Below are positions 1 to 24,515 of a DNA stretch of 24,515 nucleotides, piece after piece. The notes beneath the pieces were generated by a model that worked only from the letters and a program-made list of their open reading frames with translations, made no database searches and was not told the origin of the DNA. The first letter of the stretch is position 1, and each line of letters starts with the position of its first letter. The translations under genes were made by a program, and so were the position numbers. Origin of the DNA: a virus; the IMG/VR virus record IMGVR_UViG_3300021467_000205, positions 1 through 24,515 of that record, one strand, 5' to 3'.

Positions 1-2316
1 CTTAAGACTTACAACCACTTCTTTGTGTCCATCTTCCGTCGTCTTATAGACAGTCGTTGATAGATTTGCGTATTGACGTTTTGCCTTTTCTGCATATTCC
101 TTAGCCAATTCAAAATTACCCTTATGCAGTGCCTGTTCTGCTTTTGCAAGATTTTCTTCTGCTTCTCTTCTTCTATCATACCAGGCTTCTTCCTCAGACA
201 TAGTTTTACGTCTGAGGGAACGGATTAATTCTTCAGTGCTTTGATTTTCACGCCTGATTAACTCCTGATACATAATTACTTTGTTTTTCCATTCCTCTGC
301 CGCCTTACTTGCGTCCTTGTATGCCTTCTGAAGTTCCTTTCCTAAAGCCTGAGCATCGGCTATAGAAAGCAAATAGACAGGGTGTAAGGCTTGCATTGAA
401 CGGCCCACTCCTAAAACACTTGTCTGACCAACGTCCCTAACTTGATGCAAGGCCTTTACAATATTCTGTAAAGTTGCTTGATACTTTTCTGCATTTTTTT
501 GTGCTTCTTTGGCTTTTTCTGTCTGAAATGGTAAAGGAATGCCTAATATTTTTTTTGCCTGTGTGGCCTCCATCTCAGCCGCATTAGCCTTGTATGTGTA
601 GTATTTCATAGCCTCTATAAGCTCTTTTTTATATGCTTTTCGTTGTTCTTCCGTCAGATTTAATATTTCTTTTTGAGATAATATTTGCACATTTGCTGCT
701 TCTTTATAGTGATTTGCTGCTTCTTTATAGTGATTGGCCAAACTCTGATTTTCTTTCATGACATCATTTAAACTTTTCATTTCATTAGCCAACTTTAATA
801 CATTATGAACTGCCAGCGCCGTCGTAACTCCGAACACACCCAACATAGCTGCTTTAGCTAATGTTAATTTAGTCGTGAATAAAGTAGTTAAGGGTATAGT
901 TGTATGTAATTGAACAATAAGAGACCCTAGCCCTGTCACTATAGACCCAAGACCTGCTTTCCACAAAGCAAAGGCTGCTCCAGCTCCTATCAACGTCTGT
1001 ATATACATCCGTGTAGGGGCATCTACCTGTTCAATCGCTTGCATAAACTTGTTTATCTGTGTTACAACTGGCAAAAGTGCATTGGCTATAAATTCACCAA
1101 TTGAAATCCCAAGCCTCTCTATCTGATTCTGAAACATTTTTAGCTTATTTTCTGGTGTGTCTTTCATTTTATTATAAGCCTCTGGCATTGCCCCTGCTCT
1201 GTTTTGAAACACACCAACAGTATCAGTCAAAGTTTTAAAATTCCCTGCAAGGGCCAAAACAGCCGTTCTTGCTCCCACATCTGGGATAAGTTTTCGCATC
1301 AGTTCTGGCTGGTCAGCATATTTAGCCAGCTCTTTAATGGTTGGAATAAGCCCTTTCCATGTAATCCCAAGCTCATCCATCACTTTTTTCGCTTCGACCC
1401 CTGGAGAAGCTAAAGCCGTTAGAGCCCCACGCAAATATTCTATCGCCTCTGGGGTCTTGATACCTACTTTAGTCAAAGTAGCAATAGCAGCCGAGAGATC
1501 TCTAAAGTTTACATTCGCACTTTTGGCAACAGGCAAAACCTTTCCGATGTATTGGGCAAGTTCAGGAAAAGTAGTAACACCCTGTTTTACTGTCATAAAA
1601 AGCGTGTCATAAACATCACCTAGCTGGTCAATACTCATTCCATAAGCATTGATAACACTAACGCCCACCTTAGCCGCTGTTTTGGTATCTGTAAGACCCG
1701 CAATTGCCGCTTTTGCTGATAGTTTTAAGACCTCCACGCTATCTTTTAGTTTTACCCCAGCACTAATTATGTCATACTCTGCACTTGCCAATTGGCTGGC
1801 GCTTTGAGGTATTTGTGTTGTCAAATCAAGGATAGACCTCCGCAAATTATTGAGATTTTCTTGTGAAGTATTGAGCAGTGTATTTACCTCGGCCATCCTT
1901 GTTTCAAATGCACTATAAACACCAAAGAGTTTCACTAAAGAATAACTAGCTGCCGCAAGGCCGAGCAAGTGATTTTTAATCTGGGAAAAAGTCCCTGAAA
2001 GTGTTTTTGTTGAGCCTTGTAACTCTTGCATCTTCGCCTTAAGATTTGCCTGGGCAACTGCGTAGTCTTTCGCAGTTATTTCACCTTTTTTATACGCAGC
2101 CGTCAGTCTATCAAAAGCCCTTTCCATTTCCTCGGTTTTTTTCTTAAGGGTAGCAACAGGGGTAACATCCAGGGTTTTTAGAGCTTTTTTAAGAGATATG
2201 GTTTGCTCCTGGGCCTTTTTGATGTTTTGTTGAGATTCTTTGGCAATAGTTGACAGGGTTGGCTTTGTTTGTATGGCTTTGATTACAAATTCTAAAACTT
2301 GTTTAGCGCTTGCCAT
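1..2316 (-). CDS. Tail tape measure protein, TP901-type core; 3' end runs off the window (772 codons visible; absent from ORF track)
   Basis: ATG at 2316 (MASAKQVLEFVIKA...). Manual translation of the N-terminal ~500 codons and of the codons at the window edge shows no stop. Contains FETRMAEVNTLL, QLASAEYDIISAG, GVTTFPELAQYIGKVLPVA, typical of phage minor tail/TP901 TMPs; located right after the chaperone. Confidence 0.92.
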   Translation of the reverse strand, partial: MASAKQVLEFVIKAIQTKPTLSTIAKESQQNIKKAQEQTISLKKALKTLDVTPVATLKKKTEEMERAFDRLTAAYKKGEITAKDYAVAQANLKAKMQELQGSTKTLSGTFSQIKNHLLGLAAASYSLVKLFGVYSAFETRMAEVNTLLNTSQENLNNLRRSILDLTTQIPQSASQLASAEYDIISAGVKLKDSVEVLKLSAKAAIAGLTDTKTAAKVGVSVINAYGMSIDQLGDVYDTLFMTVKQGVTTFPELAQYIGKVLPVAKSANVNFRDLSAAIATLTKVGIKTPEAIEYLRGALTALASPGVEAKKVMDELGITWKGLIPTIKELAKYADQPELMRKLIPDVGARTAVLALAGNFKTLTDTVGVFQNRAGAMPEAYNKMKDTPENKLKMFQNQIERLGISIGEFIANALLPVVTQINKFMQAIEQVDAPTRMYIQTLIGAGAAFALWKAGLGSIVTGLGSLIVQLHTTIPLTTLFTTKLTLAKAAMLGVFGVTTALAVHNVLKLANEMKSLNDVMKENQSLANHYKEAANHYKEAANVQILSQKEILNLTEEQRKAYKKELIEAMKYYTYKANAAEMEATQAKKILGIPLPFQTEKAKEAQKNAEKYQATLQNIVKALHQVRDVGQTSVLGVGRSMQALHPVYLLSIADAQALGKELQKAYKDASKAAEEWKNKVIMYQELIRRENQSTEELIRSLRRKTMSEEEAWYDRRREAEENLAKAEQALHKGNFELAKEYAEKAKRQYANLSTTVYKTTEDGHKEVVVSLK

Positions 2317-2503
2317 TTTGTTCTCTTAGAAGTTTCATTGTTTCTTCATAGGACATTAAAAAAATAGGAAAAGGGTATTGCCAAGCCTGTGTGTGGCCTG
2401 CCAGTATCAACTGGCAGACCGCCCGGGCTAACTGTTTTGCAGCGTCTTTTCCTGTAATTTGCGAGCAGTCTCTAGAAGCTCGTCTACTGCTTTTGAAAAA
2501 AAA
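2303..2503 (-). CDS. -1 frame extension of the tail assembly chaperone (gpGT-like product, ~205 aa total)
   Basis: C CCT TTT / T TTT TTT slippery heptamers at 2506-2497; -1 frame open to TAA 2305-2303 (..QLARAVCQLILAGHTQAWQYPFPIFLMSYEETMKLLREQNGKR), filling the gap to the TMP start. Confidence 0.65.
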   Translation of the reverse strand, partial: FFFKSSRRASRDCSQITGKDAAKQLARAVCQLILAGHTQAWQYPFPIFLMSYEETMKLLREQNGKR

Positions 2504-2919
2504 GGGTTCAGCTCTCTTATAGCCTCCCTTACTTTTGCCAATACATGTTCAGGCATTTGTTTGATTTCCTCTTCTGAAAGCCCTGTCGTTAGCTTTATGA
2601 TGTATTCATCCAGGTCTTTGAATAGAAAGCTAATACTACTGACTTCACTTTCTTTTCTATAAACTTCTTGACAAAGTGCCTCCCACTCTGTGCAATTTTT
2701 ACACGCTTCGAGCATAGGTTTTGTCTGTCCAATTTCTCCCAACCTGGATCTTTTCCTGTTTGCCTCACATTGTTCAGGAGTGACCTTCCCTAAACCATGT
2801 GGACATACAAAAGTGTTATTAAGCCTCTGCAAAATATCCTCCACCTCTGCAACCGTGAGGTCGTGCACTTCTATCTTTTTGCCACTAAATTCAAGCGTTT
2901 TTATTTTTCGTGGGAACAT
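2428..2919 (-). CDS. Tail assembly chaperone (gpG-like) carrying an inserted Cys-rich domain
   Basis: Between tail tube and TMP; IEVHDLTVAEV...LF.D...TGLS..EI..M...NPFF pattern of Mu-like chaperones; residues 35-85 are a Cys-rich insert. Confidence 0.8.
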   Translation of the reverse strand: MFPRKIKTLEFSGKKIEVHDLTVAEVEDILQRLNNTFVCPHGLGKVTPEQCEANRKRSRLGEIGQTKPMLEACKNCTEWEALCQEVYRKESEVSSISFLFKDLDEYIIKLTTGLSEEEIKQMPEHVLAKVREAIRELNPFFSKAVDELLETARKLQEKTLQNS

Positions 2920-2925
2920 AGGCTA

Positions 2926-3651
2926 TTACTCCTCATATTCAATGTAATATGGCTCATTCTTCCCTTCTGGAGTGAGCAAAGTGCCTTCAAGTGCCAAAGT
3001 GGCAAAATCATCTGCCAAAAAATCAACTTCTTTGGTTGTTTTTAACCTCGCCTCATGAACATAAACCCTACAGGGTTTATCATTAACCTGGTTAATACCA
3101 TCAAGAATTAAGGCTCCTTTAATTTCTGCATTTTGTGAACCTAAAATCTTCATTCCAGCTTCGTTATAATCATATGAAACACTTAATGTTTCTCCGTCTG
3201 TTATGCTACCACCCTCGAGCGCCTTAAGTAGTCCAACGTTACTGTTCACTACATAATCTGTTCCTTCCTCATAAGTTGTCGTTTCTCCGCTGTCTTTCAC
3301 AACCACATTAGAAAGCCCACTATGTGCAAGCTTCACATAATTGCCAATACTAGCAGTTACTTCCTCACTTGTAATATTCCCTGTGCCTGCACCTTCCTCC
3401 ACGTTTCCTCGCAATGCTGCTGCAAGATTGTTTGCATTAAAATCATCCATTTCAATGCTGATTTTTGCAGGTTTTGGGATAGCAACCCTGTCAAGGGCTT
3501 GCCCATAAGTATCTGTCTGCCTGGAAATCCTTTCTTTGATTTCTGCATCTGATTCATCAATCGCAAATTTAATAGCATTCCCAACAGGCAAATATTTCCC
3601 CTGCTTGTTTCTGTCTAGATATACTTGCCCTTTTCCTAAAAATCCTGCCAT
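2926..3651 (-). CDS. Major tail (tube) protein, siphovirus type, with internal beta-rich insert
   Basis: FLGKGQVYLDR..LPVGN..KF N-terminus and V.FLADDFATLALEG.LL C-terminus typical of tube proteins of Mu-like siphoviruses; position before chaperone and TMP. Confidence 0.8.
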   Translation of the reverse strand: MAGFLGKGQVYLDRNKQGKYLPVGNAIKFAIDESDAEIKERISRQTDTYGQALDRVAIPKPAKISIEMDDFNANNLAAALRGNVEEGAGTGNITSEEVTASIGNYVKLAHSGLSNVVVKDSGETTTYEEGTDYVVNSNVGLLKALEGGSITDGETLSVSYDYNEAGMKILGSQNAEIKGALILDGINQVNDKPCRVYVHEARLKTTKEVDFLADDFATLALEGTLLTPEGKNEPYYIEYEE

Positions 3652-3673: not shown

Positions 3674-4348
3674 TTATTCCCATTTTTTTAAATTACACTC
3701 TCCATTTTTAGTATCTAGTTTAATATATGTGCAGCTATCAAGCCAATCACCACAATTAACTATGAGTTGTCCATTCTCAATTTCCATTATGCTTGCATAG
3801 TGAGTATGCCCCATTACTATTGTGATGTAAGAAATATTTGTGTTGTAAGAAATATTGCGTTCTGCAAAATCAAACACATTGCTGTATATCATACCAATTG
3901 ACTTGTGCCATTTTTCTCTATTGTATTGTTTCCAATGCGAGGGCGGTTTGAAAAAACAGGGAACGATTTTCTTCAAAAATCGCCACGGCCACCAGCCACA
4001 AAGTGAATCAAACTGGTGGCCATGAGTAAACAATACATTGCCCAGAAGAAAATGGGAAGGCGTTTCACAGCTAACGCCCAACAACTTTTGAATTGTTTTG
4101 CTCAGTTCTGGGTCGTGATTTCCTTTTAAAAGGTAACATTTGCCACTTAAAATAAGTCTTTTTAATGCTTCCAGCAACAAGGCACCAGTCCTAGACTTCA
4201 TTATTTCTTTTTCTGTGCAACGCACTCTGTCTATTATGTCCCCTGCACCCACTATTAAATCTGCCACATCTAAGGCATAATCTACAAAGCCCAGAAACTT
4301 TCTGTTTGTATAAGGGATGTGAGTGTCTGAAAAGGCAACTATTTTCAT
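3674..4348 (-). CDS. Calcineurin-like metallophosphoesterase (LpxH/YbbF-like)
   Basis: All five motifs present: SDTH, GDIID, GNHD, THGH, GHTH; C-terminal NCGDW as in LpxH-like enzymes. Confidence 0.88.
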   Translation of the reverse strand: MKIVAFSDTHIPYTNRKFLGFVDYALDVADLIVGAGDIIDRVRCTEKEIMKSRTGALLLEALKRLILSGKCYLLKGNHDPELSKTIQKLLGVSCETPSHFLLGNVLFTHGHQFDSLCGWWPWRFLKKIVPCFFKPPSHWKQYNREKWHKSIGMIYSNVFDFAERNISYNTNISYITIVMGHTHYASIMEIENGQLIVNCGDWLDSCTYIKLDTKNGECNLKKWE

Positions 4349-4351
4349 CCT

Positions 4352-4732
4352 CTACAGCGCTCCCACAAACTCCACCATAAAGGGCACAACTTTTTTAATA
4401 ACATCTTTGCCAACAAGATAGCCAAACCGTTGCCACAGCCCCAGTAGCTTACCCTTCTCACATTCTGTGAGGTCCTCGACTTTCTTGCCCTTGACAGTCC
4501 GCTCAATCTCCTCAAGGATTTCCATTGCTTCAGCAGGCATCTTACCAATATCCTCGCCGAGAGCAACCTTCCAGTAGCAAACTGAAAATTCGCTGTGTGA
4601 ACAAAGCACAGCGGCCAGCTTGTCAGCCTGGTTCATGAACTTGTCATACCTCTTGGTGAGGCCCTTCACACGGACTGCACACCCCACCAAGAGCAAGAGA
4701 CACAGAGACAATATTATTGCCGTTATAATCAT
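4352..4732 (-). CDS. Predicted lipoprotein, unknown function
   Basis: Hydrophobic N-terminus IITAIILSLCLLLLVG followed by C (lipobox LVGC); helical mature region. Confidence 0.65.
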   Translation of the reverse strand: MIITAIILSLCLLLLVGCAVRVKGLTKRYDKFMNQADKLAAVLCSHSEFSVCYWKVALGEDIGKMPAEAMEILEEIERTVKGKKVEDLTECEKGKLLGLWQRFGYLVGKDVIKKVVPFMVEFVGAL

Positions 4733-4835
4733 TGCTCCCCCCCGTTTTTACTAGGCATAAATTCCTCCTTGCGCCCTTTTTAGGACACGTTCATATATAC
4801 AAAACTCCTGGGATTTCCACGGTTATCATGTTCTT

Positions 4836-5108
4836 CTATTCTCCTACATAATACATAGTAAAATCAAACCATTTTTCATTCCTAACATACATTGTTCCTC
4901 TTAAAGCATGCTTGTTTATTTTTTTTAAGACATCTCGCACAGGCCAATATTTATAGTGCAATTCCATATCTTTAATTCTAAAATCTGCCAAAAATAATTC
5001 GCTCCCCCAAGGAAGAAAGTTTTTCCCACTATCTCCTTCTATTTTTTTGGTCAGGATGTGTGTTTCCCCAATGTAAACTTCCCAATATCCATCAAGTATT
5101 TTATTCAT
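4836..5108 (-). CDS. Hypothetical protein, 90 aa, aromatic-rich
   Basis: ORF tightly packed and co-oriented with the operon; no recognisable motif. Confidence 0.6.
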   Translation of the reverse strand: MNKILDGYWEVYIGETHILTKKIEGDSGKNFLPWGSELFLADFRIKDMELHYKYWPVRDVLKKINKHALRGTMYVRNEKWFDFTMYYVGE

Positions 5109-5546: not shown

Positions 5547-6017
5547 TTACCCTTTTGCCAGCCTTTCTATTTCTTTTGATAGAGTGTCCAAAATCTCATC
5601 CCAATCTTCGTCAGCCACCCCAAGAAAAGGCCTGACTGGTATTTCTGCCCTGTGGCCACGTCCAGCCCTGCCGCCAAATTGGTGGATGGCAGCATATGGG
5701 ACGTTTGTGCTTACTTCTACCCGGTCCTGGTAGGCATCGTAAGTGAAATGTCCGCCAAGCCGGCCCTCACGCCAGAGAATTGGATGCTCGCCTCCATAAC
5801 CAGACCGGATGCGTTGCTGTATGGTAGAAGGCTTTAGCGGCGCCCAGGCTTCACCTTCAGGTGAACGTTCCTCCTCAAAGCAAGTCTGCACCCGATTGAG
5901 CACAATCTCACCGATGTTTTTCATCACCGGCCGCAAGTCTGAAGTGAAGTTTAAAAGCCGTTTAAACAGCCTTGTAACCTCTTCATCATGTACAGTTATA
6001 GTAATGGCCGGCATCAA
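5547..6017 (-). CDS. Phage virion morphogenesis protein (Mu gpG / tail completion S family)
   Basis: F..ERSPEG..WAPLKPST, L...GRL, VEVSTNVPYAAIHQFGG, IP.RPFLG motifs. Confidence 0.9.
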   Translation of the reverse strand: MMPAITITVHDEEVTRLFKRLLNFTSDLRPVMKNIGEIVLNRVQTCFEEERSPEGEAWAPLKPSTIQQRIRSGYGGEHPILWREGRLGGHFTYDAYQDRVEVSTNVPYAAIHQFGGRAGRGHRAEIPVRPFLGVADEDWDEILDTLSKEIERLAKG

Positions 6018-6436
6018 TATGCCTCCCAGGTGTCGTCATTAAAATACTTGCTGCGCGTACTGGCTTTTACCTCTGCTGTTTGCACTCGCTCTGGTTCTTC
6101 TGAGACGCCCAGTTTGACCTGACCTTTGCTTATTCTATTCAAAAGTTTGTCAACATTTTTCTTGCGCTCCTGGATATCATCAGTAACCACGCTGCGCCTG
6201 AGCTTGAGGTAATACAACACTAGATCAACACAGATCCGCTTGATCAATATATGCGGTGTGTCCAGCGGCACATTGTAACGTGTAACCAGATACCCATCTA
6301 TCTCGGCACTGGCCCGCTCACAGATTTCATCCACCACGGTCTGATTCACGGTGCCCAGACCGTCATCATCCGTCAGTTGGATCAGCTCCTCTTCACTGAT
6401 TTCTTTTTTTAAGTCGTCTAAGGTTGCGTAGGCCAT
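6014..6436 (-). CDS. Mu gp36-like (DUF1320) head-tail connector
   Basis: MAYAT.DDL, ELIQLTD, ASAEIDGYL..RY.VPL, ICVDL..YYL motifs. Confidence 0.9.
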   Translation of the reverse strand: MAYATLDDLKKEISEEELIQLTDDDGLGTVNQTVVDEICERASAEIDGYLVTRYNVPLDTPHILIKRICVDLVLYYLKLRRSVVTDDIQERKKNVDKLLNRISKGQVKLGVSEEPERVQTAEVKASTRSKYFNDDTWEAY

Positions 6437-15067: not shown

Positions 15068-15298
15068 CTAATCCTCCCAATTAAACGGATGCTTCTTTTC
15101 CAGATATTCAAGCAGCGCCGACCTGGGTATTCGCCACGCACCACGAATTTTGGTGGCGTCGATTTCTCCAATATACACTAGCTCATATATAGTGCGTTCG
15201 GCAATCCTTAAAAAGCTTGCCACCTCTTTAACCGTAAGAAAATGAGGCATCTGATTTATTTCGTTCCTGATCGTTTTGATACAGTATTGGTTGTTCAT
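15068..15298 (-). CDS. Excisionase-like (HTH_17/MerR-type) DNA-binding protein; candidate late activator
   Basis: LTVKEVA.FLRI..RTIY.LV..GEI.A.KI.G.WRIP; last gene of the middle block, where Mu has activator C. Confidence 0.8.
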   Translation of the reverse strand: MNNQYCIKTIRNEINQMPHFLTVKEVASFLRIAERTIYELVYIGEIDATKIRGAWRIPRSALLEYLEKKHPFNWED

Positions 15299-15723
15299 TT
15301 CCCTCTGCTTCTTATCTTTTTAAGTACCTCTATTACTTGATTTGCTTGTTTCCCTGTCAGCCATCGCAAATCCTGCACTCCTGTCATTTTGAACACAAAA
15401 CGTCTGAGCGCCCGCTCTGGATTTCTTGCAAATGTTACTTCCGCCCATAACACTTCTATCTTTCTGAGTTGCCCCGGAGTGGCCATCCCAGGGCGTTTGC
15501 CCAGGTCATCATATTTTTTACGCTTTCTTTTCTCTTTAAAGCCTCGTTTTTTGAAGGCATCTAGCACCTTTTCAAGCTCAGCCAGGCTCATCTGGGAGCA
15601 ACTTTCCTTAGCGGCTTGCGCCTGCAAAAAGTCACGATACACCACATCATCAAAGCCAAGCTGCACTTTAGCAATGTGAATTTTTGCAATCAGTATTTTG
15701 CGTAGGTCTTTTGCCTCAGGCAT
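15295..15723 (-). CDS. gemA: Regulatory protein GemA (Mu gp16 / DUF1018)
   Basis: LIAKIHIAK.QLG.DD..YR.FL, SCSQMS..EL.KVL..FKKRGF, Q.RKI..LW, L.WLT..QA..VIE.LK. Confidence 0.88.
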   Translation of the reverse strand: MPEAKDLRKILIAKIHIAKVQLGFDDVVYRDFLQAQAAKESCSQMSLAELEKVLDAFKKRGFKEKRKRKKYDDLGKRPGMATPGQLRKIEVLWAEVTFARNPERALRRFVFKMTGVQDLRWLTGKQANQVIEVLKKIRSRGK

Positions 15724-17388: not shown

Positions 17389-17859
17389 CTATTCATATAG
17401 TTCATAACTAAAACTTTCCTTTAATTTTCTTTCAGTGCCCACTAAAAATAGCTTTTCATCCGTCCATTTTTCCAGGACATCCCATCTGACAGACTTACTT
17501 ACTTTAATAGCCTCAGTCATACCCAGCTCCTCAAGTTTATCTAAGACCCCCCTTGCCCGCTTAATTTTCCATTGCGCATGATACAAAAGCGCTCCATGCT
17601 GAAGCTCCACTCTTTGTGTTTCAGCAAAGAGCTCCTCCCTCTCATACTTGCAAAGGGTTTTAATCTTTTTGTCCAGTGTTTGAATAATTGACTCTAAATC
17701 TTTTATTTCTGCCACATATTTCCCCCTAATCTTAGCTATTTCCGCTTCAGCCTCGTCCTGAATTGCCTTTAATCTGCATTTATATTCAGCCATTTGCATC
17801 AATAATTGATCTGCCTCTTTATGTGCCTCTGATAAATATAATTTCCTAGCTACCCTCAT
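17389..17859 (-). CDS. gam: Host-nuclease inhibitor Gam (Mu Gam family)
   Basis: N-terminal coiled coil, ELFA..+.V.L.HG.L, L..L..LG..EAIKV..SV.WD.L, GTERK.KE.F.YE. Confidence 0.8.
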   Translation of the reverse strand: MRVARKLYLSEAHKEADQLLMQMAEYKCRLKAIQDEAEAEIAKIRGKYVAEIKDLESIIQTLDKKIKTLCKYEREELFAETQRVELQHGALLYHAQWKIKRARGVLDKLEELGMTEAIKVSKSVRWDVLEKWTDEKLFLVGTERKLKESFSYELYE

Positions 17860-18269: not shown

Positions 18270-18494
18270 CTAGCGTGCATACCTTTCTACTTCTTGTTCT
18301 TGACAAAGCACCTTCCACTCTGTGCAATTTTCACACGGCCCAGGCATAGGAAATATATTAGGGTTTGTCCATCGCCCAATTTCTTTCAGCCTGGGCCTTT
18401 TTCTGTTTGCCTCACATTGCTTAGGACTAATCCGTCCTAAGCCATGTGGACATACAAAAGTGTTATCCTTTAGCCACTTCTCTTTGTCTGGCAT
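18270..18494 (-). CDS. Cys-rich (CPxxxG...C...CxxC...C) domain protein, 74 aa
   Basis: Five Cys; strong protein and DNA similarity to residues 35-85 of the tail chaperone. Confidence 0.75.
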   Translation of the reverse strand: MPDKEKWLKDNTFVCPHGLGRISPKQCEANRKRPRLKEIGRWTNPNIFPMPGPCENCTEWKVLCQEQEVERYAR

Positions 18495-19321: not shown

Positions 19322-19647
19322 CCCCTCCTGATTACAGTTTCCGGGTCCTCAACCCAGTATTCATTGGTGTTAGGATCAAAAAGAAATCGCAAATCCTTTT
19401 GCACTGGTGGTTTAGGTCCGGTGTTTTTCACCAACCGATACACCCAGTGTGTGCCTTTCCCATTTAGATTGGGTTTGCGTCTTTTCCGTAAATACCCTGC
19501 ATCCGCTAAAATTTTTAGATACCGTTTGATATTGACATAGGTAGCGTCAGTAAGCATTTCTATATCCGCAGAAGTAAATTCCTCTTTATGAGCCCGGATT
19601 ACCTTCCAGATTTTGGCCCTATCTGTTTGCATCCGCACCTTATTCAT
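19318..19647 (-). CDS. Winged-HTH protein typical of the gene after MuB in Mu-like prophages
   Basis: IWKVIR...EFT..DI, YLKIL..AGYL, YRLVKNTGPKPP, FDPNT. Confidence 0.72.
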   Translation of the reverse strand: MNKVRMQTDRAKIWKVIRAHKEEFTSADIEMLTDATYVNIKRYLKILADAGYLRKRRKPNLNGKGTHWVYRLVKNTGPKPPVQKDLRFLFDPNTNEYWVEDPETVIRRG

Positions 19648-20330
19648 TTTGTCCCCTCCAAATCCCTTGCTGTAACAACCTTCCCCTTGTTTGTCTTTGC
19701 CATTCGCTCACATAGATACAAACACACCACCACTCGCCTAAATTTCCCACCTGATTTATCCCACACCCATTTCAGGGCTGAATCCTCAAGCTTCGCCTCG
19801 CAAATGGTCTCAGCCGTTAGTCGCACATCATCAAGACTAAGCGGTTGAAATTTCACTATCTGAGAAAAACGGTCATAAAGATGTTTATAACGGGCCAGTT
19901 TTTTATCAGCCTGACTCATACCGATATACACAAAAGGAGCACCGGTAATATCGTGCAGGTCCCGCAGAGTTTCAATTACACGAGCATCGTAGGTAAGATA
20001 GTCCACTTCATCTATGAACACGATGCGTGGCTTCTCTAAAAGGGCATCTTGTGCTTGCCTAAAAAGATCACTTGTCCTCCACGCCGGTGCTTCACCAAGC
20101 TCTGCCACAAGCTCTTCAAGCAACCAGCGGCCGGACATGAGCTTTTTTGTGCGGATAAATATCGCTCCATCATCCTGGGCCACATACCAGAGGGCTGTGG
20201 CGGTTTTGCCGTAACCGGGCTCGCCATATACAAGTGCCATACCCGGAATGCCCTCCTGACGTGTCTTTAGTGACACCATTGCATCCAAAAAATGCCTAAC
20301 ATTTGACACTTTGACAAACTGCTTTTTCAC
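19644..20330 (-). CDS. MuB: Transposition ATPase (MuB-like, AAA)
   Basis: GEPGYGKT Walker A, IFIDEVD Walker B, LRDLHD; directly after the transposase. Confidence 0.92.
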   Translation of the reverse strand: MKKQFVKVSNVRHFLDAMVSLKTRQEGIPGMALVYGEPGYGKTATALWYVAQDDGAIFIRTKKLMSGRWLLEELVAELGEAPAWRTSDLFRQAQDALLEKPRIVFIDEVDYLTYDARVIETLRDLHDITGAPFVYIGMSQADKKLARYKHLYDRFSQIVKFQPLSLDDVRLTAETICEAKLEDSALKWVWDKSGGKFRRVVVCLYLCERMAKTNKGKVVTARDLEGTK

Positions 20331-20332
20331 GA

Positions 20333-22561
20333 TTAACCTCCTGTTTGAACCTTTCTTCTATGCCCTGCGTGGGCTTCGGCCCACCAGGGCGTTCCTTTTT
20401 TTTCGTCCTCTTCTTTGTAAATCAGCCGATACATATCTGTGGTGATAAACCATTTAATAAACTCCACTTCTTTTTCATCTCTGAGAGGCCGACCTTTTTC
20501 TAGATACTGCTGCCGATACCACTCATACGCCCTCCAGGTGTCCGCTCCAAAGAACGGCACATCATCTGCTTGGCTGTCTGTATCACCCCTTTTCTCTTTT
20601 TGTTTGTTAGACAATTGCACTACCTTTTGTTCAATTGCCTGTATATCTTTAATAAATTTTGTTTCATCTGGGGCAGATGTTTCGGCTTCTATACGCTCAA
20701 TGGTCTCTGGAATGTTCGGCACCTGAGAAACAACCTCATTCCAGGGCAGTTCTGGTAAAGACCTGCCGGATTGAATGGCCGCTTTGGCAAGCTGGACAGT
20801 CTGTTTTTTGAGTCGCTTTTTCTGGGAAATACCTTGCTTAACAGCCTGCATATCAAGAGGATTGCCGATAAGAAATACAGCCGGATGGACGCTTTCCACC
20901 AGTTCTGCTGGCCCAAGATAATTGCCGCGCAGGTCAAAAACATAGATGCGGCTCAGGTTAGTGAATATATAGCGAATGATTACCTTTTCCCGCAGGCCAT
21001 ATAGATTTTCATTCCAGTATTGGTTGCCAAGGAAGGAGATGCCGTTTCGGAATACTTGTTTCACTTCATACGGCATCATGAGAAAGAAAAGCTGCTCTAC
21101 ATCCACTCCCGGCCCTTTGCCGGCATTAAACACTTCCCCAGGTGTGCGGCCTCTAAGTCCACGGTGGGGCTGGCTGGCATAAAATTCACGCCAAGAGTAA
21201 AAGAGTTGGATCACCTGCGGAATAGTGGGTATCCATTTACCCTTGATGCGTTTGGCCAGTTTTTCATTGCGTTTAAGGTAGGCAGGTTTGTCATCTATGT
21301 TCTGCCCCACATAACTTGGCAGCATCCGCTCAAACCACTCATTAAATGTACCAAAGAAACGCTCAACCGGCTTTGACTGGGCGTTGTATGGCCAGCAAAA
21401 GTGAGTGTGAATGCCAAGCCGGGCATACATGCCGTATATACCCGCCTCTTCAAGGTTTACTTCGCTCGTAAATATCTTGGCTTTGAAGGCCTTGCCGTTA
21501 TCCAGAATTACAGCCTTAGGCATCTTGCCCAGGGTAATGATGGCATCGGCCAGGGCACAGGCAATGGCCTGGGTGTCTTCCTGGATCATTATAGAAATGC
21601 CCACTGGAAATCTACTTGCCCAATCGTAAAAAAGGATTAGTGCCGGCCGATAGGGCTTACCGGTAAAGGGATTGATTACTTGAAAGTTGCACCGCTTGCC
21701 ATCTGCTACCAATACCTCGCCGACTCCAAGCAAATCGGCATTGCGCTTAAGGTATGGAAGGACTTTGTCGTTTAAACCCTTTTCGCCCTCACGAAGCAGC
21801 GTCCAGAGATCATAATTTTGCGCCCGCCATTCCTTCACCCACCGGCGCATCGTGTCATAAGAGGATGGAGATGGAATGCCACGCTGGGCAAGGATGTGTT
21901 TGGCAATGCGGATAGCGGTGTTTATCTTAATCTGGTTTTGATAGAGAAGGATATCTAAAAGGATATTTTTCTCATCTTCTGTTATCTTGCGCTGCCCTTT
22001 GTTATGCCCCCACCGCGGAGCAAGGGCTGTATAGTCATCTTCTGCTTCAGAAAGGGTCTTATCCCATACATATAGAGTTTTTATGGAAATCTGGCCTAAA
22101 ATTTCATAGATTTTCGGGAAAAGTAGGGCTGAATTATAGCTTTTTATAAAATTTTCAGCCGCCTTTAAGACCTTTTCACCCCGTTTTTTAGCCGCTTCTT
22201 TCTCAGCTCTAAAGGCTCTAACCAGATCCGCTCTGGCTAAAGCAATACGTTCTGCCCACTGCGGAAGCTGTGTTGGTTCATGATAGATATTTTGTGAGCT
22301 GACCGGCGCAAGTTGACGTTGACTTTGAATATGGGTAATAACAGTGTTGGGATTGTTTTCTACTGGAGAAAGAGCCCTGATGAGCTTAAAACGAATATCC
22401 TGGGGTAGGGAAGAAAGGATGTATTGTTTCTGTTTGCCACCACGGGCACGCCCTTTTATCTGTTGATATGGCCACTTTTCTTTTCTTGCTCTTTTATCAA
22501 TTGTTTGTCTTGAAACCCCTAATATCTCCGCAATTTCTTTAGCTGTGAAGTATTCTTTCAT
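20333..22561 (-). CDS. MuA: DDE transposase (MuA-like), 742 aa
   Basis: N-terminal Mu-type HTH (TAKEIA.ILGVS..T+.KRARKE.W); DDE at VADGK, LDNGKAF, KPVERFF; HRGL.GRTP and GI.F.G..YW C-terminal domain. Confidence 0.95.
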   Translation of the reverse strand: MKEYFTAKEIAEILGVSRQTIDKRARKEKWPYQQIKGRARGGKQKQYILSSLPQDIRFKLIRALSPVENNPNTVITHIQSQRQLAPVSSQNIYHEPTQLPQWAERIALARADLVRAFRAEKEAAKKRGEKVLKAAENFIKSYNSALLFPKIYEILGQISIKTLYVWDKTLSEAEDDYTALAPRWGHNKGQRKITEDEKNILLDILLYQNQIKINTAIRIAKHILAQRGIPSPSSYDTMRRWVKEWRAQNYDLWTLLREGEKGLNDKVLPYLKRNADLLGVGEVLVADGKRCNFQVINPFTGKPYRPALILFYDWASRFPVGISIMIQEDTQAIACALADAIITLGKMPKAVILDNGKAFKAKIFTSEVNLEEAGIYGMYARLGIHTHFCWPYNAQSKPVERFFGTFNEWFERMLPSYVGQNIDDKPAYLKRNEKLAKRIKGKWIPTIPQVIQLFYSWREFYASQPHRGLRGRTPGEVFNAGKGPGVDVEQLFFLMMPYEVKQVFRNGISFLGNQYWNENLYGLREKVIIRYIFTNLSRIYVFDLRGNYLGPAELVESVHPAVFLIGNPLDMQAVKQGISQKKRLKKQTVQLAKAAIQSGRSLPELPWNEVVSQVPNIPETIERIEAETSAPDETKFIKDIQAIEQKVVQLSNKQKEKRGDTDSQADDVPFFGADTWRAYEWYRQQYLEKGRPLRDEKEVEFIKWFITTDMYRLIYKEEDEKKGTPWWAEAHAGHRRKVQTGG

Positions 22562-23781: not shown

Positions 23782-23795
23782 GTGTGGTTAGAAAT

Positions 23796-24515
23796 ATGAA
23801 AACGATAGCAGAAAGAATTAAGTTTCTTTATGAAAAATCTGGATTAACACAGCCTGAATTTGCTAACAGGATTGGGATACATAAAAACACACTTATAAAG
23901 TACATGAGGGGAGAAAGTAGCCCACAATCAGATACTTTAGAAAAAATAGTTGCCATGTTTAAGGTTAACCCTACTTGGCTTCTTACAGGAGAAGGAGAGC
24001 CATTTGAAAAACCTAAAAAACAGCCTGGTCATGTAGCCGAATCTGAAATTGAATATCTTATAGAAGAACATACCATGATCCCGCTTTTAGACACAGAAGT
24101 TGCCGCTGATGTAGTTGGCACCTGGCCCACTGAAAAGATTGTTGATTATTACCCCTTTAAACGTGTCTGGCTGCGCAAAATCAGCGGAAGTTCTGAAGAA
24201 AAACCTAAACGCTTCGTCCTTCTTCGCTGCCGTGGTGACTCCATGTCCCCCACTATAAACAATGGCGAAGTTATGCTGGTAGATACAAACCTGAATAGAC
24301 GGATAGAAATAGAAGATAACGCTATTTACATAGTTCGGCGGGAAGATGATACTATTGCCGTTAAAAGAGTTGTCCAAAAAGGTCCTAATGTACTATTATG
24401 CTTGAGTGATAATATAAATTACAAGCCGTTTACTATAAAAATTGAGTCAGAAAAAACCATCCAGGACTATATCATCGGCCGTGTCCTCTGGATCGGCCGT
24501 GAATTAGTAAAATAG
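23796..24515 (+). CDS. Prophage repressor, XRE HTH + S24 peptidase (CI/LexA-like); probable start ATG 23796
   Basis: IAERIK.L...GLTQ.EFA..IGI..NTL..Y.RG...P, P.WLLTGEG; GDSM.P (Ser) and VKR (Lys) catalytic motifs. Confidence 0.92.
   Translation: MKTIAERIKFLYEKSGLTQPEFANRIGIHKNTLIKYMRGESSPQSDTLEKIVAMFKVNPTWLLTGEGEPFEKPKKQPGHVAESEIEYLIEEHTMIPLLDTEVAADVVGTWPTEKIVDYYPFKRVWLRKISGSSEEKPKRFVLLRCRGDSMSPTINNGEVMLVDTNLNRRIEIEDNAIYIVRREDDTIAVKRVVQKGPNVLLCLSDNINYKPFTIKIESEKTIQDYIIGRVLWIGRELVK

Follow-up and report, generated by a model that had tools for sequence, protein, structure and literature searches.

A four-cysteine regulator domain inside the tail assembly chaperone gene of a Mu-like phage

Tail assembly chaperones of the G/GT type are well known. 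Those of the lambda gpG/gpGT type, including the HK97 protein (2OB9) and YqbN (3KLU), share three features: a gene flanked by those for the tube and the tape measure; a heptamer for −1 frameshifting, the extension from which overlaps the start of the tape measure gene; and a small fold of beta-hairpin plus helices. The chaperone gene described here resembles them on all three counts (for the fold, Z 6.0–7.2 after the insert is trimmed). Unlike them, it carries a 52-residue cysteine-rich module in its G part, between helix 1 and helix 2. This module is found in none of the matched chaperone structures, PHROG profiles, or close orthologues.

The accepted route to phage mosaicism is the gain of domains through illegitimate recombination. 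Illegitimate and homeologous recombination have been discussed against each other as the source of mosaicism (PMC2327257), and a further study (PMC8136500) reports more gene flow in phages rich in recombinases, transposases, and end-joining functions; the present phage, for comparison, encodes a transposase and Gam. As in other mosaic genomes, the locus presents a novel joint at short or diverged homology, kept because it is in frame and at a domain boundary. Unlike the usual mosaicism, in which whole genes are swapped at their boundaries, a single domain is set inside a gene, and here the states with and without it ("filled" and "empty") still segregate in one phage population.

The module's closest described relatives are early proteins of Mu-like phages, represented by 180-aa proteins on contigs L014 and L016 and by protein clusters P0007 and P0008. 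The insert is 55–70% identical to close members of this family and retains its NTFxCP...QCExNR...CxxC core with four cysteines. Unlike them, it has no invariant tryptophan helix, start codon of its own, zinc ribbon, or DNA-binding-like tail.

New here are the module's place within the G part, its origin in a regulator, the segregation of filled with empty alleles, and a domain family without a name. A domain capture in an essential virion-assembly gene can be compared before and after the event within one population, with junctions readable to a few bases, providing direct evidence of how phage proteins gain domains. The locus also marks a site at which a G-type tail chaperone accommodates 52 additional residues, of use for tagging or engineering, and it defines an unnamed, confidently folding four-cysteine family among early regulators of uncultured Mu-like phages.

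The host gene and its repeated segment

The window, the whole stretch of DNA analysed, is a 24.5-kb IMG/VR record (24,515 nt) with provirus classification; it comes from an uncultured, transposable siphophage of the Mu-like kind. Its relevant features are collected in Table 1.

Table 1. Positions of the features discussed, numbered along the window
Feature	Position	Strand	Basis or remark
Tape measure gene	1-2316		PF10145, E 3e-34; start codon at 2316
T extension in the −1 frame, 64 open codons (predicted)	2303..2497	-	Ends 13 nt beyond the tape measure ATG
T8 run with slippery heptamer T_TTT_TTT, predicted −1 frameshift from G to GT	2496..2503	-	Sequence
Tail assembly chaperone G gene, 163 aa, with insert	2428..2919	-	ORF, synteny, phrog_344, fold
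Right junction, purine-rich AAGAAAGT	2647..2654	-	Common to filled and empty alleles
Net 156-nt in-frame insert, F37-R88; four-cysteine domain without the family's N-terminal Trp helix	2656..2811	-	Alignments of filled with empty alleles; early-gene homology
Left junction, 8-mer ATAACACT	2812..2819	-	Common to empty site, filled site, and early-gene homologues
Tube gene	2926-3651		phrog_807, E 3e-49
Mu Gam homologue	17389-17859	-	PF07352, E 3.9e-24; landmark downstream of the regulator family
Resident early gene, 74 aa, four-cysteine domain alone	18270..18494	-	Remnant of a 180-aa regulator
Deletion junction	18285..18286	-	485 nt of L014 (6937-7421) missing
AAA+ MuB-like protein	19644-20330	-	Early region
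Mu-type transposase	20333-22561	-	Early region
S24/HTH repressor	23784-24515	+	Early region

By position, frameshift, profile, and fold, the host gene is a siphovirus tail assembly chaperone of the gpG/gpGT type. Its place between the tube and tape measure genes is repeated in contigs L004–L009. The PHROG family phrog_344 ("tail assembly chaperone") matches the window's protein weakly (P0001, E 0.006), P0003 at E 3.4e-4, and insert-free orthologues down to E 6.8e-7 (P0005), and the alignments run over the full length with a gap at the position of the insert. The slippery codons read CC[T TTT TTT]CA. An orthologue with 59% identity (L026) has the same T run in the same phase and conserves the −1 frame peptide; this intact and conserved site and extension predict a programmed −1 frameshift that yields GT. 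Because the insert lies upstream of the frameshift site, G and GT would both carry the module. When a model of the chaperone without the insert was compared with 48,161 chains, the best match was 3klu (YqbN, from a B. subtilis prophage; Z 7.2, rmsd 2.5, 80 residues aligned), followed by the HK97 chaperone 2ob9 (Z 6.0 over 78 aligned residues) and by 5ir0 (Z 5.8). These Z values are moderate, and the model is a single-sequence prediction; the next match, at Z 4.9, is unrelated.

A first-pass annotation of the window, made from the sequence alone, had reported that chaperone residues 35–85 match an early gene. The two open reading frames are translated as it gave them, and the match is borne out: a tblastn search of the record with the 74-aa early protein finds a second site at 2662–2820 on the minus strand (E 1.5e-22, 70% amino acid identity, no stops), which corresponds to chaperone residues ~35–88. 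At the DNA level the copies share two blocks, one of 91 nt at 84% (2729–2819 and 18376–18466) and one of 54 nt at 83% (2665–2718 and 18297–18350), offset from each other by a 15-nt indel. Together they are the longest repeat in the window, and the identical 25-nt block noted earlier is present. The boundaries first proposed for the shared segment (2665–2817) need slight adjustment: the insert proper is that in Table 1, and the homology extends somewhat further 3', through a "VYRK" tail.

The four-cysteine family and the resident early gene

An exhaustive HMMER search recovered 73 representative clusters of the domain at E<=1e-3. In nearly all of them the domain stands at the start of the protein; the few apparently internal cases are probably over-long gene calls, since each has a methionine at the aligned first position. 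The chaperone is the sole case among the 73 in which the domain lies inside an unrelated protein without a start of its own. Family members conserve a tryptophan in the first helix and the motifs NTFxCP, QCExNRxRP, and CxxC, and thus four cysteines. The initial claim that all five cysteines are conserved therefore holds between the window's two copies and fails across the wider family, where the fifth is not kept. Chaperone residues C39, C51, C73, and C76 align with family positions C15, C27, C54, and C57. The insert begins at the NT-F motif, residues of the chaperone's own helix (Q31) occupy the tryptophan position, and a near-invariant proline is displaced; the resident 74-aa copy retains the family tryptophan.

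In typical members, of ~150–260 residues, the four-cysteine domain leads into a zinc ribbon (CxxCG...GLCxxCY) and then a strand-helix-helix tail. This tail is probably ribbon-helix-helix-like, and one family member matches Pfam Arc (2.7e-4). Ribbon and tail are present in L014, L016, P0007, and P0008; the insert has neither, and it does not lie beside gam. Close relatives, in contrast, are encoded 0–2 genes upstream of Mu Gam (the contigs of P0009, P0011, and P0021 being too short for gene context), and one relative occurs in a Desulfohalobiaceae MAG. Folded with the family alignment, the 74-aa protein gives a compact model at pLDDT 90. To judge from the cysteine pattern and the model, the domain presumably binds zinc.

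Searches for a named relative came back empty within the following scopes. Pfam has no family for the domain (74-aa protein, E<=1). PHROGs and a PDB profile search returned only zinc-ribbon-level matches (in the PDB, an eL37-like zinc ribbon), all in the middle region of full-length members. Fold searches with the pLDDT 90 model gave nothing at E<=0.001 in PDB and BFVD, which is not proof of a new fold, and Z <= 3.8 in VIA. The ESM Atlas yielded unnamed clusters only; tblastn with both proteins found no match among the cultured phages of INPHARED; and the literature searched described neither a chaperone that has a zinc domain in its interior nor the four-cysteine family. In a word-index search the early protein retrieved a single near-identical cluster (P0006), and the insert alone retrieved only the chaperone's own cluster. 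A WhiB-like Fe-S protein was considered and rejected: there is no Pfam match at E<=1, the spacing is C-X2-C-X6-C rather than C-X2-C-X5-C, and the last of these cysteines is not conserved in the family.

One 672-nt ENA contig (L030) joins a regulator gene directly to a CRISPR-like array at 527–672. The regulator part is 97% identical to the window's early protein and runs on into the zinc ribbon; the array has three copies of a 30-nt repeat, GTTTCAATTCCTCATAGGTAGGCTCAAAAC, 66–69 nt apart. This contig probably arose when the assembly ran through a spacer directed against this phage gene, and the host might be identified from it.

The window's own early gene, by alignment with its relatives, is what a deletion has left of a 180-aa regulator. 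The 180-aa orthologue in L014 and L016 precedes genes for 77 aa and 127 aa, after which comes gam. In the window a 485-nt deletion has removed the rest of the regulator and most of the 77-aa gene, and the regulator's first 70 codons now run out of frame into the last part of the 77-aa gene. Near the 3' end of the regulator gene, L014 (7230–7260) also differs from L016 by a GC-rich in-frame extra of 9 nt (CCCGACAGG), suggesting that phages of this group commonly have small in-frame insertions.

Filled and empty alleles, junctions, and donor

The filled allele occurs in nine further contigs (L004–L012) from separate ENA, JGI, Logan, and IMG/VR samples, put together by differing assemblers (MEGAHIT-, SPAdes-, JGI-, and Logan-type), and its junctions are identical in all. 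L003 and L013 are the two contigs with the empty allele (L013 also has a metagenome record, L025), so that filled and empty stand at ~10 contigs to 2. The tube and tape measure genes of L003 and L013 are 96–98% identical in nucleotides to those of the window, the same range as among the filled phages. The window is the only contig with both the chaperone and the early region. Three orthologue clusters, of 110, 111, and 113 aa, are without the module; one of these is otherwise near-identical to the window's chaperone. The comparison sustains the earlier description of an in-frame insert that splits an ordinary short chaperone: the difference is a clean net gain of 156 nt.

Variation at the locus is slight. 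Among filled alleles, 9 of 336 flank sites vary and 1 of 156 sites in the insert, the latter synonymously; across samples and diverged backgrounds none has a frameshift or stop. Chaperone flanks show no synonymous differences between filled and empty alleles. Only three bases set all filled alleles apart from all empty ones, each at the right junction or within 12 nt of it. Two substitutions there (K to E and L to V) are among these differences. The insert is thus real, in frame, and persistent in many samples.

At the left junction the 8-mer ATAACACT is preceded by GGCT.A. At the right junction the genes of the early family are likewise purine-rich at the matching position. The exact crossover there is ambiguous and cannot be fixed to the base. 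The ends of the insert have neither a terminal inverted repeat nor a target duplication. Read from their sequence, the junctions bear the mark of recombination, illegitimate or homeologous, between short stretches of homology, here microhomologies of 8 nt.

Where did the insert come from? It could in principle be an ancestral part of the chaperone that was precisely lost from the empty alleles, an artefact of assembly, or a self-mobile in-frame element. Nothing specific speaks for any of these beyond the existence of two alleles, and as a group they are scarcely credible. The orthologues of 110–113 aa, more distant orthologues, the PHROG chaperone profiles, and the matched structures are without the domain, so the insertion is shown by these alignments to be derived rather than ancestral, and restricted to one lineage, as the first-pass annotation had proposed to check. 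Misassembly, which that annotation had named as one outcome that would overturn its reading, is excluded by the identical junctions in independent assemblies. A mobile element would be expected at more than one non-native site in the family and with the terminal repeats or target duplication that are missing here. The notion of recent duplication of the resident early gene, within the window's own genome, has in its favour that no sequence found is closer to the insert than the resident copy and its orthologues (63–70% amino acid identity). It is nonetheless highly improbable. Over aligned codons the insert and the resident copy are ~76% identical in nucleotides, with dS 0.72, dN/dS 0.28, and the 15-nt indel, set against virtually no synonymous change in the flanks; so large a dS could not have accrued since so recent an insertion. 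The "VYRK..EV" tail at the 3' end of the insert, which is P0007-like and typical of the family, is missing from the resident remnant, and the L014 and L016 orthologues are equally far from the insert (71–75% nucleotide identity). By these comparisons the resident copy is shown not to be the donor, and the first-pass proposal of a recent intragenomic capture falls.

The dS, the indel (which gives the insert the short loop length seen in P0008), and the tail point instead to a diverged homologue, one presumably carried by a different Mu-like phage. The ENA sample series that supplied several filled and empty contigs is also the source of P0008. A donor search of IMG/VR, JGI metagenomes, and GTDB genomes found nothing closer to the insert than the resident lineage.

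Two classes of element were also considered and set aside. Inteins have Hint blocks and at least ~130 aa; the 52-aa insert, F37...R88 followed by K/E, lacks the intein end residues (a Cys/Ser/Thr start; His-Asn followed by Cys/Ser/Thr). A repeat of the RPE or MITE kind would not fit a sequence with two copies in the record, one of them a native gene, with no terminal inverted repeat or duplication and a single non-native site among the 73 family representatives.

The module in the chaperone and the surrounding genome

On balance we favour capture of a regulator's four-cysteine domain from a diverged homologue by way of microhomology, leaving a chaperone that still works and a module that it tolerates as a passenger. 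In this sequence of events, the gene segment for the N-terminal four-cysteine domain of a Mu-like early regulator would have been copied into the chaperone gene. The donor was not the copy 15.6 kb away but would have been another phage's diverged homologue. Illegitimate recombination would have been led by microhomology: ATAACACT on the left and a purine-rich stretch like AAGAAAGT on the right. The net gain of 156 nt keeps the frame, and the site separates the first helix of the G domain from the second. The module would then sit on a surface loop as a tolerated passenger, and the chaperone most likely works still.

A single-sequence model of the chimera is consistent with this arrangement. 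The insert falls between helix 1 (residues 23–36) and the next helix (96–112), with confident chaperone elements on both sides; the insert itself is modelled as unstructured (pLDDT < 50). Its folding is uncertain, because the tryptophan helix is missing and the proline displaced, despite the four retained cysteines. Persistence of the undisrupted allele on several backgrounds argues for a working chaperone with a passenger module, which we judge rather probable as a statement about function; the insert would presumably be neutral and chaperone activity retained.

The excess of filled contigs is a point against the passenger view, as it could mean advantage rather than neutrality. The module might provide a new binding surface on an abundant late chaperone. 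Acting as a dominant-negative or decoy, this surface might pair with the early remnant or, where related Mu-like phages share the cell or superinfect it, with their full-length regulators; it might also alter recognition of the chaperone by host defence. The filled allele is not only the commoner but is found on several flank and neighbourhood backgrounds; all four conserved cysteines are kept in the insert; and the phage has also retained an early protein that consists of the domain alone, encoded in a translationally coupled position. Still, such an adaptive function is unlikely: the invariant tryptophan helix is absent from the insert, about 12 contigs are too few to infer selection, and polymorphism in the insert is not clearly below that of the flanks. 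A more specific version, which we regard as quite doubtful, is that the captured domain, made abundantly late in G and GT, binds the partner that the N-terminal domain has in the early regulators, which might be a further copy of that domain, some other protein of the phage, or a factor from the host. If so, early regulation might be coupled or shut off, related Mu-like phages hindered, or a host sensor escaped, and a chaperone would have come to moonlight as a regulator or decoy through a single recombination event. Any activity of the module in the chaperone would link early regulation to tail assembly, a link for which we know of no precedent; the first-pass annotation had speculated on such a link, or on one from metal or redox state to tail assembly. 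The opposite possibility is that the insertion cripples the chaperone and that the allele survives only in decaying, vertically inherited prophages. Such decay would suit a record that is classed as a provirus and whose early region has lost 485 nt. We consider it very unlikely, given that the late genes of the window are all open, that the frameshift site and T extension are intact, and that the allele is found in many samples and on diverged backgrounds with no frameshift or stop.

The genome around the two copies is that of a Mu-like phage. On the minus strand, the early region contains small early genes and GemA in addition to the transposase, MuB-like protein, and Gam, and the Gam neighbourhood recurs in L014, L016, L027, and L028. 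The late region includes an amidase, Mu-type head genes, and the tube, chaperone, and tape measure genes.

Several minor features vary within the window or among its relatives. Between gp37 and the tube gene (3674–5108) lies a polymorphic cargo block of three genes, coding for a metallophosphoesterase (PF00149, E 1e-9) and for proteins of 126 and 90 aa. L005 and L011, whose matches to the window reach 4448 and 4348, respectively, keep the block at least in part; it is missing from L004, L012, and L013, in which the tube gene directly follows gp37. The 126-aa cargo gene has a homologue near the early region of L014 and L015. The metallophosphoesterase gene contains an 18-nt tandem pair (3820–3855), and the tape measure gene a perfect 21-nt tandem duplication (691–732) that encodes a 7-residue repeat. 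GemA homologues occupy two differing positions in related phages: in L014 a 164-aa GemA-like protein with an N-terminal CxxC...CxxC is encoded upstream of the regulator (5746–6240), and the GemA gene of the window (15295–15723) lies further downstream.
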